A DNA stretch of 63,211 nt, the filler included, from Cercozoa sp. M6MM (Eukaryota; Protista; Endomyxa: Ascetosporea), in the NCBI GenBank assembly GCA_040357565.1. It is 10 parts of 10 records of this genome, joined end to end, with 100 filler letters (N's around TTAATTAATTAA, not from the genome) between each part and the next. Parts side by side here need not be neighbours in the genome. Positions count along the whole stretch, not along the records: positions 1 to 13,681 come from JBDODJ010000350.1; 9 more parts are not named here. One strand, 5' to 3'. The position numbers and the translations under genes are program-made. This document shows, piece by piece, positions 3,001 through 58,544 of the stretch; position 1 is the first letter of the stretch; each line of letters opens with the position of its first letter. The notes beneath the pieces were generated by a model. It was not told the origin of the DNA and made no database searches. It saw only the letters and a program-made list of their open reading frames with translations.

Positions 3001-5292
3001 TCTGTCCCTATGATATAGGCCGTCTTTGGCGACGACATGATGCCGCGCTCCTTCTTCGCCAACGGACACGTGAGTTGCAGCCTTAACAAACCTTACGCAG
3101 CCTTAACTAGGATGTGTTATGCACAATGTGTAATGCACAGGTCATGATCGACAACGAGAAGATGAGCAAGAGCACCGGCAACTTCTTGTTGCTGCAGGTA
3201 TTGTTCACTCCTCCCTTATATCCCTCCTCACCCCATCTCCCCTTGTTCAGGACTCAATTCGTCTATTCTCTGCCGATGCCACGCGTCTGGTACTTTTGCC
3301 CCCCCCCCCCCACCCCCCTCCTTCCCTTTACCCCCTTGGTATTAGGCCATGGCCGATGCTGGTGACGGTCTCGAGGACGCCAACTTCAACGTGGCCCTGC
3401 GACCCAAGGAGGCACACCCACCCTCGCCCTACCCCCCCCCCCCATTTACCTCCTTGTTGCAGAACGAATCGGTCGCGCAGTTCCAGCGTCGTCGCGAAGG
3501 TGACGCAGCCAACACGTAGCGATTTTTTACCCCCCTGTCCCTCTCTCTTTACCCCCCCCCCCCCCGTGCAGTGCCATTCTGCGTCTGACGCGCGAGGAAG
3601 AGTGGCTACAGCAGATGCGCGCCGCCATCGACAATGTATCTTTGTGACACACGCGGGGGGGGGTAAACAGGGGGGTAAGACGGGGGTAAATGTGTGGCCA
3701 AACAGGGCGAGCTGCGTACCGAAACTGCCGAAGACGCCACCTTGCAATACGCCGATGAGTACCTTTGCTTCTCTGGGGGGGGGGTAAGGGAGGTTTAAAC
3801 TGTCTTTGTCTGCAGGGTGTTCGCCAACGCCATGAACCGCGCTGTACTTGAGAGTGACAAGGTGCGTTCATATGGGGGTAAAGGGGGGGGGGTAAAAGTA
3901 CTCCTGGCTGTCGTAGGCCTACGCCGGCATGCGCTTCCGCGACGCACTCAAGGACGGTTTCTACGGTCTGCAGAACGCGCGCAACGCCTACGTCAACCGC
4001 TGCCGTGGCGAGGTACTGAGGGGCAAAGGGNNNNNNNNNNNNNNNNNNNNNNNNNNNNNNNNNNNNNNNNNNNNNNNNNNNNNNNNNNNNNNNNNNNNNN
4101 NNNNNNNNNNNNNNNNNNNNNNNNNNNNNNGGGGGGGTAAAAAGGGGGGGGTAAGAATACACCCGTGTGTGACAGACGTCGCTGCTGAGCAAGGAACTCA
4201 TCGAGCGCTACATTCAGACCGAGCTGGTAGTCAATCTTTTTTGTTGTGTTGTTGTTTCTGTTTAAAAAACAACAACACTGCTGTCTGCGCAGGTGCTGCT
4301 GGCGCCGATCTGTCCGCACTTCTGCGAGGGTACACGCGAGTTTTACCCCCCTCCCGACACTCCTACCCCTACCCTCTCTACCTCTTTATCCCCCGTCCCC
4401 AGGTCTGTGGCAGAAGCTGCAGCTGCCGGGTATGTGCATCGATGCGCCGTGGCCGCAGGTGGAGCAGGAGGACCTCGCTCTCACGCGCATCGACAACTAC
4501 CTCAGCAAGTGCGTTTGCCCCCTCCTTTTACCCACTCACTTATCCAACCCAACCCAGGCTGGCGCACTCGCTGCGCACGGCGTTCAACAAGGCGAGCAAG
4601 AAGAAGACGCCGACGCAGGTCAAGATCTTTGTCGCCACTGAGGTACACGAGTGCTTTACCCCTCCCCCTCACACCCTCTTACTCCTTTCCTCCCTTGTAG
4701 TACAAGGAGTGGCAGCAAGCTGTGCTGCGTATTATGGCGGCCAAGGGTAAGTGTCCCCCCCTGCCCCCTATGGGGATCCTACTATGTCTGTAGTTGCGGA
4801 GGCCAACGGCGACCTGTCGGTGCTGTCGCCCAAGACTCTTGGTGCCGCCATCAAGGCCGATCCGGCTCTCAAGAAGGTAGCTTTGTCCCCCCCCCCCCAT
4901 TGCCCCCATTTGACCCTCCTATCGTGCTCAGGTGATGAAGCTCGCCATGCAGTTCGCTGCCTTCCAAGGCAAGCTGGTAATCCTGTCTGTAGTCTGCTGG
5001 AGTCCGAGTACTGACTGTGTCGGTAGGCCCAGGAAGAAGGCGACTCGGCGCTTGATCTGACCTCGCCGTTCGATGAGGTCGCCACGGTGCAGCGCTACCT
5101 CGGTACCCCTTACATAGGTTTGCCTCATGTATGTGTGTCTATTGTATCATAACCTCTTGCCCAGGCCTCGTGTTCCAGGACTTCCCGGTCGAGCTGGACG
5201 TGCAGGTCGTGCCGAGCACCGAGGCCGACGAGAGCTTCCGCAAGAAGGCCGAGCAGGCCAAGCCGGGCCACCCGGCGCTTGTCTTCCTGTAA
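1..5292 (+). CDS. LARS1: Cytosolic-type leucyl-tRNA synthetase, 5'-partial, about 36 introns
   Basis: Spliced exons give [35 protein letters not shown], the editing-domain motif [41 protein letters not shown] and KMSKSTGNF. Stop TAA at 5290-5292. Two N gaps fall inside introns. Confidence 0.98.
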
Positions 5293-5454: not shown

Positions 5455-7020
5455 TCACCGACAGTTGTACTGCGAGAAGTTCTTGCGCACCTTGAGTAGC
5501 ACTGAGTGGTGGCAGCCCACCCTGCTCAGCAGATACGCATGCGTCTCTCCTCACATGTATACCAGGGAGAGAGAAAGGCTACGTGAGGCAGGCAATGGGC
5601 GCGTCGGTGCGGTACTTCTGAATGGAGCCACACTGACCGCACAGGTACTCGACCGACTGCACGTTGTCGTGTCTCTGTGTTCAACAGAACATGGAGGAGG
5701 GGGGTAAAGGTAACACTCAGTATACAACAACAGCAGTCGTACCTCGATAACAAGGCGCGCACCAGGTCGAACTCGCTGTTCCCAGAAGGGCTTCTCGCGG
5801 TCTAGTTCCTTCTGGTCGCAAAACACGCGGTCGTTCGGCCCGATGGTCTGAGCACACCGAGTACATGTAGGCGGGAGATATGGGATAGGGTCAAAAGGTA
5901 ACACAAAGAAGCAAGACAGAAGCAAGACAGAAGGCTAAGACAGGACAAGAGGTGGCTACCCGAGCGCCGGACTCATTGTAGGCGCGCTCGAACTCGCGCA
6001 GCGTGACTGAATCGGAGACCTGGACCTCCTGCCCGTCGACAATAACGTGGAAGGGCGGCATCTGGTACACGAGTCGCACGGCATCCTGAGTGGGGGCCGG
6101 GATCTGCGCCACCTCGCGGTTGTCGTCGAACACGTTGTTGCGGTTGAGCTCCTCCACCAGCTTGGCTCGCTCCAATAATGCTCCCGTCGGGTAATGCTTG
6201 ATCCTGGCAGTAAGGGGCGAGGAGTAACAAGGGATAACAGAGAGGTAACATGAGAGTCAAGGAAAGTAAAGCATCAGCTACTCGTGCTCGAATCGTTCGA
6301 TGAGCTCGCGCACTTTCGTAGTACCGGAGACTTCGAGCGTGATGCTTCGTCGTAGGTCCTGTCAATTACACACACATAGTCACAATAGATGACTACACTG
6401 GCTACTATAGGTGGCTACACTGGCGACTATAGGTGGCTGCAATGGCTATGGTACAGGTGAGGCGTCCGGGAACATCGTGATCAGCACCATGACCTGACCG
6501 GAACACTCGAACTGCAGCGGTTTCTCGTACTGCAAGTTCTCGGGTGCGTCCGGTGCCGATGCCTGCAGAGAGTAAAGCGGATAAGAGGGTGATAAAGGGC
6601 AGTAAGTCGGGGTAGGAGGGAAAAGGGTAAAACGGGTGACATGGGGGTAGCAGAGGGGTATAGCACCTCCGGAGGCGGCAAGAACTCGGCCAGCGAGTGG
6701 CCGAACTGCTGGATGATCAGGCCAAAGAGCGTGTCGCGGTGCAGCACCATCTCGCCCTTACTGACCGTTTTGATGTGCACGCCCGTCGAGCTTTCGATGG
6801 CTGCCAGCACTTCGCCTAGTCGCATCCCCGGGTGCACCTGGGACGTGTCTTGCTTGCCTGTGGGGGGGGGGGGGTAGACCAGGCAGTGGGTAGGCAGGTC
6901 GCATGGGATAAAGGGAGAAAGGAATAAGATACCCAGGTGATTAATCGAGACGGTGAACTCGTCTGAAACGACGCGCACCTACAAGTACGCACCATCTGAC
7001 CTCTCAAACACATATATACC

Positions 7021-7053
<33 letters not shown>

Positions 7054-7454
7054 CAATCGATGGTACAATGCCCTGGTCGGCCGACGGCAGCGGTTTGTCC
7101 GTCAATTTCAGTGGCTACAGCACCGTACTCTTAAACAATAGTTAATTTGGCTACTGGCTACATGTCAGGAGGTGCGTACCTTGTTATCCTCGGTGTACAG
7201 AGGCATCGTGAGTCGCAGCTTGGCGCCCTGCGAGATGCGGTGCCGCAGCACGTCGCCCCACGACGCAAAGTCCGCCAGCTGCAGCTCCGTGTACTCATCC
7301 TCGGCTACTTCGTGCAACACGAGCGTTGTGTCGCTCAGCTCGAGCTCGAGCTCCTCGTTGTCTTCCTCGTACTGCCCAAAAGAGTCAAAATATTTGATAT
7401 CGACACAGAAATATCATCTTGGGCGACAACTTGCGGAAAACTCACATCAGACAT
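5455..7454 (-). CDS. Protein with about three ubiquitin-like (beta-grasp) domains and a C-terminal Rpb12/RPABC4-like zinc ribbon
   Basis: ATG at 7454 (MSD|YEEDNEE...), in-frame GT-AG exon chain. Ubl-like segments include FHVIVDGQEVQVSDSVTLREF...RVFCDQKELDREKPFWEQRVRPGARLVIE. C-terminus VEYLCGQCGSIQKYRTDAPIACLTVGCHHSVLLKVRKNFSQYNCR*. Confidence 0.75.
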
Positions 7455-7681: not shown

Positions 7682-9707
7682 ATGCCACCTCGGCGAAAGA
7701 GAACTGTGGTGACCCGGGTACCGATCGGAAATGCCCGCTTCGTGATGGGGAAGAATCTGTCCTACATGCGCGACAGGTGAGCTTCACCGCTCGTTGATCC
7801 ATTGATTTACTGCCCCAGTGATGTTGTATCGTCTGTAGTTCCGACCTGCTGAAGCAAGGCCGATTCCGCGACTTGCGGCAGCGACTGAGGTGATTGCTCC
7901 ACGAATGGTACCAAAATGACAAGAGTGATCAGTCTGTGTGTGCAGCAACGAAGGTTTCCTGTTTCTGCGCGGTCTGGTGCCGCGCGAAGTTGCATTGAAG
8001 GCGCGGCTGCCGGTGCTGAAGTTGGCGCATGAGAAGGGCGCGCTTGCACTTCCAAAGGGCCAGTCGAAAGCGACGCCGGAAGCACTGTCCGAGATGCTCA
8101 TCTCGTCCAGGAAGGTCGGTCGCCGCACAGTGCTCGCAGATGGCTACACGGTACAACATTGCCTTGTTTCACTAACCTTGAGACTCTCTTAGTTATATTT
8201 TTGCTGACATATAACATTGCAACAGGTGGATGCTCGCACAGGCGGCATTGGCGGTGAGCGTGACCCGGACTTTGAGTCCTGGGCCAAGGTGGGAAACACT
8301 GCCGACGTCGTGGCAATCTACGACGGCGACGTCATCCACACACTGCTGGACAACCTGTTCGGAAGCAACAAGGATGGCCAGCAGGAGCAGGACCAGGCCT
8401 GCTGGGAGACCTTCCCAGAGCACACGTGGCTGCGACTCAAGGAGAACGGCGGCGCCACCATCGAGCACGCTGACTACTACTACTTCAAGCGCGACACGGC
8501 CGTGTTCGAGGAGGGCGGCACCACGCTGCGCGACTCGGGCGACTCCGTGGGACATCAGGCTGGTCGTCCGGCAGTCCGTCGGCTCGTCAACGTGCAGCGC
8601 AAGAAGAGCGACGTGTCGTCGCACTGCATCAAGTGTGCCGACACCCAACCGACTGAGCTGCTGCACTGCGGTCTGTGTGGCCTGCGTGTGCATGACACGT
8701 GCTTGCCCGAGGAGCTGCAGCAGGCGCGGCAGGGCGGCGGCTTTGGTCAAGAAGGTGCCTGGCACTGCACGCGCTGTGCTAACGGTCCGCTCGGTGTGTT
8801 CACCATGTGGACCTGTCTCACCGACCTCGAGTCACACAAGCGCAGCATGCTGGCGGTACCCCTGTGTTTCTCTTTTTACATACAAATCTATATATATATG
8901 TGTGTGTGTGCATGTACATATAGGTGTGTCCGCGGTCGCACACGCTGCAAGGCGTAGACCAGGTGCCGCCTGGCACGCAGGTGCAGCGCAGCTACTGGCA
9001 GCGACGCAAGGAACTGCCTTGGGTAATCCCGGAGACCCTGTCACCCGGCGATGTCATCGTGTTCAACATCAAGACGGTGCATGCCGCCTCCTTTAACACC
9101 AGCAAGCAGTTCCGCTGCTCTTTCGACACGCGTTTCCAGTTGCTCCGGCCCGTGGTACCTTTGCTTTGTTGTGTACTTTGCCTGCTGTGTGTGCACACTT
9201 GGTACTCGTGGTATTGTAGCCACTAGACCAGGTCAGCAACGGTGGCCATGACATGACCGAAGAGCCGAGCGAGCCGCTTGAACATTTTGATGAGTCGGCT
9301 GCTTTGGTATCTTGGTGCTTTTGTGGGGCTATCTACTCATGCATCGTACTGATGAGACATCTGAGTGTGTGCAGGCCAAGATGCGGCAACCGGCGACACC
9401 TGATGTGGCCGAGGCGGGTGCTTTGCTAACTCCCAGCAAGATCGAGCCGACAGCGATCGACAACGAGAACAGCAACCCAGCGTTGAACCTGTCACGTTCC
9501 ACGCTCACTCCACACGAGACACCGTTTCAGAAACTCAAGATCGTCGGTCGCAGCAAGCAGGGCCAGCCCATGGCGAAACAGAAGCGCCGGCGTCGACTCA
9601 GTTTCTCCGACTGCGCCATTGATGATGAGCCGAGCGACGCCAGCACGGCCGCCACGGCTTCGTCTGCCGCTGCTGCCCCTGTCCCGGCTGCACTCCGTGA
9701 GGATTGA
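7682..9707 (+). CDS. PhyH-like 2OG-Fe(II) dioxygenase with an inserted PHD finger
   Basis: LSNEGFLFLRGLVP, HAD at 8466-8474, C4HC3 finger at 8625-8777, FTMWTCL, VCPRSH, PGDVIVFNIKTVHAAS.N (His at 9080), RCSFDTRF. Basic NLS-like PRRKR and KQKRRRR. Confidence 0.85.
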
Positions 9708-10426: not shown

Positions 10427-10538
10427 TCAGGAGAAACACGGCGATTCACATCGAATCGTTTCGCTTGCTTTGGCACCATTTTCCCTGTGCGCATGCGTAC
10501 CAGTGCAAATACATGTGTTTCTGGGCGACGGAGAGCGC

Positions 10539-10577
<39 letters not shown>

Positions 10578-11837
10578 GGAGAGAGAGAGAAAGGGGGGGG
10601 GCAGAGGGGAGAGGGTACACGCGATGACTGCGCAGAAGGCGGCTAGAGCGGCACCTAGCAGCACCTCGTGCAGTCGATGCTTGTGTTCCAGCACCTTGCC
10701 ACCTCCAATGAAGAGTCCAAACACCAGAGGAGACACCGAGGCCAGCACGGCCCAGAAGGGTGGCGCCACGGTCTCTCGATTCAGCAGACGCAGCTTGTGG
10801 CACAGATACAGGCACAGGAAGACGCCAAAGGCCGTGCTCTGACTCGTGTGACCCGACGGGAACGACAGGCGGCCCTTGGTGCTGGCATCTAGGTTTCAAT
10901 CAAGTTAATACATCTTGTCAGTGTTGCCTCCCTCCGACTACAACCCCCAGGTACCAGAGTTTCGACACAAGGTGGCAGCAAGGACAAACACTTGAAACTG
11001 TGATGCCATCGCTTCCTTCGCCTAAACAAAATATGCGAGCTACCCCTTCCCCTCCACCTCTGCCCTGATACCTCTTGCAGAACGGCAGGATCGGGATCGC
11101 ACTCGGCCATGAAGAGTCGACGAGGCACGGCGAATGCTGCCTTGGCTGTGGGGGACATAGGAGCAGAGCGGTATAGGGTGTAGTGGGGTAGAGGGTAGAG
11201 GGTATGAGGGGCAACAGGAGTAAGGAGGAGGAATAAGAAAACGGGCCAGGGTGTACCCATCTCGGTCCAGATCTGCGTGAGCACGTTGCAGATGACGAGA
11301 CCGTAACACAGCATGAAGGCGTCATACTGCCAGGTGCTGCCGGAACACTTGACATTTCCGTGTCGTTGCACACACTCGATCAGAACAATTAACGCGATTG
11401 GCACTGCTCAGATAGCCATCTGTTCAGCTCATTTTGATACTGTTTCACCCAGCACAGCGGGTACCGAGGTAGGAGACGGCCCAGACCAGGTGGAAGTTCA
11501 CCTGAGTCTTGGGCGTCTCCGGTCTCCAGACGTCGTCGTTTGCTAGGTCGATGAACGTCGTATCCAGGCCTGCGATCCAGGCCCGTGTCGCCGGTTGAAC
11601 GAAACCAATGATCCCAAAGGCGACTGTTCAAGTACAGAATCAGAAAGACCGAACAGTCTGTTGAGACAACTCACGCAAAAGCGACATCAACTGCGTCAGC
11701 ACACGTGCCTTGTTGCTGAAATGCTCGCCGAGAGTGCTCATTTTGATCGTTCTGCCTGTGCTGTCATCTTCGTTCGTGCCTGGTGAGTCAGTGTCAGTGT
11801 CCACTATCATTGCGACGGCACTCCCTTCCCGTTGCAT
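10427..11837 (-). CDS. PAP2-superfamily lipid phosphate phosphatase-like membrane protein
   Basis: Motifs KAAFAVPRR (C1-like), SFPSGH (C2) and GKVLEHKHRLHEV (C3-like), with several hydrophobic helices. The frame of the last exon is uncertain. Confidence 0.85.
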
Positions 11838-13904: not shown

Positions 13905-16562
<2,658 letters not shown>

Positions 16563-57431: not shown

Positions 57432-58544
57432 TCACCAGACAAAGTCACTCGGCACGTGCATGGCCCACGGGAACTTGCGAATGAGCGCAGACTGGAAAAC
57501 GCGCTCGATGGGCATCTCGACTCGCTTGCACCAGGCCACCGTGATGCGCGGGTCCATGTAGTTGATCTTGGACGTGCCAAGCGCAATCTCGCGGTTGTCC
57601 ACCTTGAGTTGTCGGTCCTTCTTGAGTTTCACGATGCGCGCTTGCTGCTTCGTAATCTCCTTGCGAATCGAGGCCTCCGGACGAGCCTTGCGAGTCGCCT
57701 TCTCACCCTTCTTGGTGAGTCGTGTGGCACGCGGCTTGCTTTCGCCGGCTTCGGCCTCGAGTAGTTCGATTTCGAGCATTTCGAGCCACTGCTCGGCTTC
57801 AGCGACGCCTGCTCACACCCCAAGTCAACTCAAAGCGGTTTCATCTCAAAGCTGTTTCATCTCAAAGCTGCCTGATCTTCAAAAATTTCAACCCGAAGCT
57901 GTTCAACTTAGAAGCAAAGCAAGCTCAACCCAATTCAAGGCTCTCAACTCAAAGCTGTTACTCAACTCAAGGCTCTTTCAACTCAACTCAACTCAACTCA
58001 AAGCTCTTTCAACTCAACTCAAGGCTCTTTCAACTCAACTCAAAGCTCTCAACTCAAAGTTCTGTCAACTCAAGCTCTTTGAACTCAAAGCTCTTTGAAC
58101 TCTCCAAGCAAAAGCAAAGGCGAAGACAGCGTACGCTTGTTGAACTTGTCGACCTGCTCGTCAAAGTTCTTGGGCACGGTGCGCTGGTGGTTGCACAGGA
58201 TGGCGACCTCGCGGTTGCACCGGTCATAAAAGTGGCGTTTCTCGGCCACGACGGTGTCCTCGTTGACCTGGCCGGGATGACCGTCCTTGGTCCACGTGGG
58301 CTCCCTCAACTCGTCCTGCAGCGTGATCGACGCGTTGTAGGTACGGAACACCTTGGCCGACAGTCCGTCCATGTGTCCGTTCAGGTAGCGGTTCACCTTC
58401 TCCACCGAGATGCGGTCGAACACCTGTCCGGGGGAGGGGTAAAGGGGTAAAGGGGGTAAAGGGGGCAAGGAAGTAAGGTACATACCTTGTCAGATGGTGC
58501 CTTGCCTCGCGTGAACAGCAGCATGTTGAGGAACACCGGCTTGG
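57432..58544 (-). CDS. TOP1: DNA topoisomerase I C-terminal part, 5'-partial
   Basis: [50 protein letters not shown] (catalytic Tyr), KFPWA. Confidence 0.97.
57810..58133 (-). repeat. Degenerate minisatellite (TTGAGTTGAAAGAGC-like) filling a TOP1 intron
   Basis: Repeated CAACTCAA and AAAGCTCT units on the + strand. Confidence 0.8.

Follow-up and report, generated by a model that had tools for sequence, protein, structure and literature searches.

RPB12 is a small subunit common to the nuclear RNA polymerases (Pol I, II, and III) and is among the most size-constrained. The zinc-ribbon motif of RPB12 and archaeal RpoP has been described as CX2C...CX2C, and the conserved Lys and Arg lie in a C-terminal peptide of subunit P whose 17 residues suffice in vitro for the basic function of the polymerase; in yeast, the first Cys of subunit P is the only essential Cys, and changing the Arg before Cys3 had a weak effect (PMC2680338). 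RPB12 sits where assembly factors bind and is contacted by GDOWN1 (PMC13443923). As for ubiquitin joined to small subunits, it is reported to act as a cis-chaperone on eS31 and eL40, and Giardia retains an uncleaved Ub-eS31 (PMC8122580). A full-text literature search, with most subscription papers outside its scope, found no title or abstract on a fusion of ubiquitin or of ubiquitin-like (Ubl) domains to RPB12. The word "polymerase" is absent from the main text and one supplement of PMC6332867, PF03604 and RNA-polymerase terms are absent from one supplement of the ubiquitin-architecture review PMC8122580, and ubiquitin occurs in PMC12930898 in the reference list only.

The locus described here lies in a 63,211-nucleotide stretch of DNA, the whole of which we call the window, from Cercozoa sp. 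M6MM, an organism assigned to Apofilosa, which within Rhizaria is sister to Retaria (PMC11069148). On the minus strand, from 7454 to 5455, a gene of 11 exons and 10 introns encodes 392 aa. All 10 introns are GT-AG and measure 61 to 112 nt with a mean of 82 nt, and 82 nt is also the mean intron length given for M6MM in PMC13746701. The 11-exon translation is, letter for letter, the public protein P0001 (392 aa, "hypothetical protein MHM6MM_005396 [Cercozoa sp. M6MM]"), which forms a cluster by itself and was matched at 100% identity by an exon 8 query. Transcript reads are described as having been used to train the M6MM annotation pipeline; P0001 counts as an independent gene prediction, not as proof of expression. 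A 10-exon, 376-aa model was replaced, as the 48-nt exon at 7114 to 7067, present in P0001, was missing from it; this exon divides a 201-nt intron into introns of 65 and 88 nt, both GT-AG. Third-position GC is 0.63 to 0.90 over the whole gene model, including the ribbon exons. Three of the ten introns (at 6281, 5959, and 5582, minus strand) start with the donor GTAGC(C/T), an unusual consensus.

On the plus strand, a cytoplasmic leucyl-tRNA synthetase-like gene with a KMSKS motif (3111 to 5292; PDB E value, 0.08) lies tail to tail with the fusion gene, 163 bp from its stop, and a divergently oriented neighbor with matches to a PHD finger (E value, 2.8e-4) and a PhyH dioxygenase (E value, 8.6e-6) occupies 7682 to 9226, with an apparent start about 230 bp upstream. 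At these distances the neighbors leave little room beside the fusion gene. Elsewhere in the window are exons of a PAP2 phosphatase (10449 to 10895), a formin FH2 domain (14470 to 15749), and topoisomerase I (57435 to 58489).

The RPB12-like ribbon is encoded by the last two exons. Exon 10 (5583 to 5674, minus strand; aa 341 to 370) carries a short linker, the first CX2C knuckle, a 13-residue spacer, and the third ribbon Cys, and exon 11 (5455 to 5521, minus strand; aa 371 to 392) carries Cys4, the K-x-R motif, the C-terminal Arg, and the stop. Of the Pfam families, PF03604 matches exon 10 best (E value, 0.0079; 16.3 bits) and is the sole family matched by the whole of P0001 (E value, 0.022; 14.9 bits), both scores falling below the 24-bit Pfam gathering cutoff. 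The protein has no NCBIfam match, and no match to Pfam, PDB, or NCBIfam lies above a formal threshold. We also built our own RPB12 profile from 15 intron-free rows (one of them incomplete) taken from RPB12 genes at 118 metagenome loci. Against this profile the C-terminal ~45 aa score 24.4 bits, a value reached by none of 2,000 full shuffles (maximum, 11.2) and by none of 2,000 shuffles in which the four cysteines were held fixed (maximum, 17.3). Because all shuffle scores are below 24.4 bits, the resemblance to RPB12 goes beyond chance and beyond that of a generic four-Cys ribbon. Exon 10 ranks first against the profile among 2,143 six-frame open reading frames of the window (E value, 2.5e-5; runner-up, 0.78). 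The match to an Rpb12 HMM that the original prediction proposed as a check is seen in the Pfam ranking, where it stays under the cutoff, and with our own profile. In a PDB sequence search with aa 270 to 392, 11 of the 12 matches are RPB12 chains (best E value, 0.041). A structure search of the Atlas with aa 342 to 392 places a PF03604 cluster in the top row (TM score, 0.65), and MCM and rubredoxin-like zinc ribbons score near RPB12, all of these below the bar of the tool; an Atlas feature search with the ribbon as the query gave no usable match.

The ribbon motif is CX2C-x13-CX4C, so that all four Cys residues and the 13-residue spacer are kept and the second knuckle is two residues longer. 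K381-x-R383 and R392, at the exact C terminus, are also kept, and the tail is in register with the RPB12 alignment. The pattern originally recognized in the tail therefore reads as described and ends in Arg-stop, with two exceptions: CX4C replaces CX2C in the second knuckle, and the motif is LLKVR. A CX2C second knuckle was sought through other splice sites and rejected: with other acceptors the knuckle becomes longer or the reading frame changes, and the junction in P0001 is the same. Among 13 columns that are near-invariant (at least 90%) in 69 distinct reference cores, a conservation inflated by the motif used to collect the references, which includes some of these columns, 8 are kept and 5 are lost (the G after Cys4, an R, a Y, a T, and the penultimate A). 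Yeast RPB12 also departs at one of the lost columns, with L at the Y position. The median identity of the ribbon to the 69 cores is 30%, compared with 63% among the references themselves; one residue is deleted after K-x-R, the G-x-R after Cys4 is absent, and the tail has 4 basic residues compared with 5 to 8 in the references. The residue before Cys3 is Ala. The kept parts (the four Cys residues, the spacer, K-x-R, and the final Arg) overlap those described as functional in the subunit P study (PMC2680338). The C-terminal ribbon is an RPB12 homologue, but a degenerate one. The homology originally proposed is supported by the profile, while the drift from typical RPB12 is greater than had been recognized, and in view of the CX4C knuckle we file the ribbon as an RPB12 homologue and not as a canonical member. 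It is not freestanding, being the C-terminal domain of the 392-aa chain.

The ribbon exons lack an independent start. Read upstream from exon 10, the frame meets a stop inside the 68-nt intron that precedes it, and the single ATG of this intron runs into a stop two codons on. The Ubl exons, for their part, lack an independent stop: read-through past the donor at 5742 stays open to 5553 and spans the first ribbon exon in another frame. Two separate genes would therefore have to overlap. The fusion holds on sequence grounds, since the zinc-ribbon exons lack a start, and the Ubl units and the RPB12-like ribbon form one in-frame fusion in the gene model. The in-frame joining claimed in the original prediction agrees with the identity of the gene model to P0001 and with the GT-AG borders of all introns; the intron that it placed at 5675 to 5741 exists and spans exactly 5742 to 5675. 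One explanation that would dispose of the finding altogether is that the ribbon is a generic four-cysteine ribbon present by chance on a Ubl protein, or that the gene model merges two genes. We consider this very improbable. It draws on the lack of any database match that passes a formal threshold, on the closeness of the MCM and rubredoxin-like ribbons to RPB12 in the Atlas structure list, and on the status of the public gene model as a prediction, and it has to contend with the outcome of the Cys-fixed shuffles (0 of 2,000 reach the profile score), with a K-x-R...Arg-stop tail that is in register, and with ribbon exons and Ubl exons that have no independent start and no stop, respectively.

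The part ahead of the ribbon is 342 aa long, close to the approximately 350 aa first estimated, and its architecture is as proposed, with an acidic N terminus followed by Ubl units. Roughly three beta-grasp units had been counted; four fit the evidence better. The predicted head-to-tail units cover about aa 18 to 90, 90 to 184, 185 to 271, and 272 to 342 and are encoded as follows, all on the minus strand. Exon 1 (7446 to 7454) provides the start codon and aa 1 to 3, in agreement with P0001, and exon 2 (7180 to 7371) provides the acidic N terminus (aa 4 to 17) and the first part of predicted unit 1 (aa 18 to 67), which exon 3 (7067 to 7114; aa 68 to 83), found in P0001, would complete. Exon 4 (6933 to 6978; aa 84 to 98) holds the end of unit 1 and the start of unit 2, exon 5 (6667 to 6857; aa 99 to 162) holds the core of predicted unit 2, and exon 6 (6455 to 6562; aa 163 to 198) holds the end of unit 2 and the start of unit 3. 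Predicted unit 3 continues in exon 7 (6282 to 6358; aa 199 to 223) and ends in exon 8 (5960 to 6203; aa 224 to 305), which also encodes the first half of unit 4; the second half is in exon 9 (5743 to 5847; aa 306 to 340), which ends without a di-glycine.

In an Atlas structure search with the whole protein, each of the 10 rows is a cluster of the ubiquitin family; the rows span aa 15 to 388, with TM scores by query of 0.24 to 0.36, under the bar of the tool. The alignments to tandem ubiquitin begin at residues 15 to 26 in 9 of the 10 rows. Several rows align aa 17 to 187 (134 to 145 residues) and one aligns aa 129 to 346, which fits two units followed by two more. Leads from the Atlas feature search with the whole protein were all below 0.9. 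A structural model of aa 270 to 392, built with RPB12 rows and without ubiquitin rows in the alignment, has a pLDDT of 79, and its first ~72 residues, corresponding to unit 4, match ubiquitin-like domains with a Foldseek E value of 4.9e-4 and a VIA-align Z score of 11.2 (root mean square deviation, 1.5 Å; 69 residues aligned). The prediction of a beta-grasp fold is strong for unit 4 and weaker for units 1 to 3. A full-length AlphaFold model made without an alignment (pLDDT, 31.5; no Foldseek row with an E value of ≤0.001) was set aside as unusable.

By sequence, unit 2 alone resembles ubiquitin above shuffles (z score, 2.9; 12 of 2,000 shuffles as high), the corresponding counts being 1,233, 163, and 112 of 2,000 for units 1, 3, and 4. 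P0001 has no match to Pfam ubiquitin, a ubiquitin profile scores the units below 0 bits, the units have no significant alignment to each other, and PDB sequence searches with single Ubl exons returned chance matches only. As the original prediction held, no GG precedes the ribbon; GG is in fact absent from all 392 aa, so that no LRGG occurs at the unit junctions, and residues 335 to 352 contain no Gly. When unit 4 is aligned to ubiquitin in a weak ungapped register, Phe, Val, and Glu take the positions of Ile44, His68, and Val70, and unit 4 is therefore probably not recognized by the usual receptors and proteases of ubiquitin.

These features bear on whether the chain is cut. A di-glycine-independent protease could cleave the ~8-residue linker after unit 4 and free an RPB12 of normal size, in which case the Ubl string would be a disposable leader. 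The distance between the ribbon and the last beta strand of unit 4 is about that of cleavable ubiquitin-RPB12 fusions, and ubiquitin-fused zinc-binding ribosomal proteins are described as normally cleaved (PMC8122580), both of which agree with such a precursor. Nevertheless, with GG absent throughout, with no Gly around the linker (residues 335 to 352), and with units that go undetected by the ubiquitin profile, which makes recognition by ordinary deubiquitinases unlikely, we consider processing of this kind improbable.

In the protein and locus searches made, no sequence relative of the fused four-Ubl-RPB12 form was found. A protein search with exon 8 returned P0001 alone among 109 candidates, and the N-terminal 342 aa had no match in 211 loci. 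The ribbon as a query against proteins of 30 to 214 aa, in a search that reaches close relatives only, yielded no candidate. Against 1.84 billion cluster representatives, the 32-aa ribbon exon matched P0001 and four other proteins, of which three are Cys-rich repeats and one (P0003) came with no matched stretch. Since searches of short proteins and of representatives reach close relatives only, an ordinary free RPB12 in this organism is compatible with them.

We also searched for RPB12 in longer proteins (106 to 2,000 aa), with 7,990 candidates scored and 120 of 152 matches listed. P0001 is not among the 120 matches listed, indicating that this search is blind to diverged ribbons. A ubiquitin domain is carried by 2 of the 120 matches listed (of 152). 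Two protein clusters (P0074, P0079, and P0126 to P0134) consist of a near-perfect ubiquitin followed by LRGG and a canonical RPB12, in 120 aa. LRGG directly precedes the ribbon in 10 of the 11 members, one member is from a transcriptome set, and in P0132 both ubiquitin and RPB12 are above the Pfam cutoff. These proteins look like cleavable ubiquitin fusions. Their 5 distinct cores rank 1 to 4 and 7 of 70 by pairwise score to the M6MM ribbon, and their identity to it ties with that of unfused rows. In a 43-column tree, P0001 sits on a branch of length 5.75, as long as that of an archaeal-type RpoP row, apart from ubiquitin-GG-RPB12; descent of the M6MM gene from the ubiquitin-GG-RPB12 fusions is thus not supported by the tree.

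Other RPB12 genes came to light in these searches. Two loci (L048, 214 to 1155; L052, 1246 to 1650) carry RPB12 genes that resemble the RPB12 part of the ubiquitin fusions, but ubiquitin is absent from the surrounding 1.5 kb; in L052, the apparent start Met lies three residues ahead of the first Tyr-x-Cys. Thirteen loci from viral_contigs (L199 to L211) match RPB12, and the 12 that were inspected are intron-free RPB12-like genes, several of which are extended at the N terminus by long stretches that are acidic or rich in Ser (PF03604 E values, 3.3e-12 for L199 and 1.8e-10 for L206). A pelagophyte record (P0067) has a methyltransferase domain followed by RPB12 and may be a merged gene model.

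A working polymerase subunit and a paralogue that tethers Ubl domains, the two readings originally offered, remain the right pair. The first is that the fused chain is the working RPB12 of this amoeba, uncleaved, so that RNA polymerases I, II, and III would all bear the Ubl string; we judge the chances of this to be about even. The second, which we find doubtful but well within reach, is that a free RPB12 elsewhere in the genome serves the polymerases and that the fused copy is a duplicate that has drifted into a side role, either at the RPB12 site, where it would compete or hold the place during assembly, or as a Ubl scaffold with a different binding partner for its ribbon. The drift of the ribbon from typical RPB12 is compatible with a paralogue that has lost polymerase binding. 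The 5 of 13 near-invariant columns lost, the CX4C knuckle, the less basic tail, and the very long branch (5.75) count for the paralogue and against a working RPB12, as do the score below the Pfam cutoff on the one side and the median identity of 30% on the other. The retention of the four Cys residues, the 13-residue spacer, K-x-R, and the Arg at the exact C terminus, as if under selection for the usual socket, speaks instead for a working RPB12, as does the result that no close free copy surfaced among shorter proteins or cluster representatives and no free copy among the longer RPB12 proteins listed, in protein searches that were all of limited reach.

If the fused chain is the working RPB12, the ribbon and the K-x-R...Arg tail would take the place between RPB2 and RPB3 that RPB12 has in other polymerases, and the Ubl string would remain attached, outside the enzyme. 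We infer that the string may descend from a ubiquitin-RPB12 or polyubiquitin-RPB12 precursor, a kind of fusion whose natural occurrence is seen in the two clusters above, that served the folding and supply of a tiny zinc protein, as shown for Ub-eS31 and Ub-eL40, and that the GG cleavage sites then decayed and made the fusion permanent, as in Giardia Ub-eS31. The string might now be a built-in folding and assembly aid and a docking surface and not a source of ubiquitin, a role that we propose by analogy. Against permanence, ubiquitin fusions that stay uncleaved are reported to be unstable and, in yeast ribosomes, poorly assembled (PMC8122580). Half-YFP and GFP have been attached as N-terminal tags to plant Rpb12 (PMC13152212), a weak sign that N-terminal cargo is tolerated. 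The boldest form of this reading, that the sole RPB12 in part of Rhizaria is a four-Ubl fusion that stays uncleaved on Pol I, II, and III, its polyubiquitin a fossil that has become a lasting polymerase module, is rather unlikely and is put forward tentatively.

Both parts of the protein are known folds; what appears to be new is an uncleavable tandem-Ubl form of a universal polymerase subunit. If the proposal is true, ~38 kDa of ubiquitin-fold domains on RPB12 would represent a polymerase architecture unlike those of the yeast, plant, and animal models. Free RPB12, cleavable ubiquitin-RPB12, and uncleavable four-Ubl-RPB12 would form a series, and this series would be a testable nonribosomal case for why ubiquitin joins small subunits of large machines. 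On the boldest reading, and together with the cleavable ubiquitin-GG-RPB12 of other protists, RPB12 would join eS31 and eL40 among the recurring tail proteins of ubiquitin and be the first of them from the transcription machinery. Fused genes of this kind pass as "hypothetical" and would make RPB12 seem lost from these genomes.

The M6MM protein can be compared with four known systems. With RPB12/RPABC4/POLR2K/Rpc10 (ABC10-alpha) and archaeal RpoP (PF03604), it has in common Y-x-C-x2-C, the 13-residue spacer, two further Cys residues, K-x-R, and the final Arg. RPB12 and RpoP stand alone, whereas the M6MM ribbon is fused to 342 residues and differs in its CX4C knuckle, the deletion after K-x-R, the loss of G-x-R, an identity of ~30%, and a score below the Pfam cutoff. 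Ub-eS31, Ub-eL40, FUBI-eS30, and the uncleaved Ub-eS31 of Giardia, as described in PMC8122580, likewise place a beta-grasp domain ahead of a small subunit that belongs to a large machine, but the M6MM chain has four diverged units instead of one ubiquitin, no LRGG, and a polymerase subunit as the partner. Among the ubiquitin fusions of Bigelowiella natans and Guillardia theta, those reported in PMC6332867 have actin, P1/P2, NiSOD, IMP, and RING partners and include a rhizarian precedent for one to three ubiquitin units on unusual partners; these algal fusions carry recognizable ubiquitin, unlike the M6MM units. The domain order of P0074, P0079, and P0132 is that of the M6MM protein, the ribbon following immediately on the final strand of ubiquitin, and these proteins differ from it in having one near-perfect ubiquitin, an intact GG, and a canonical RPB12.
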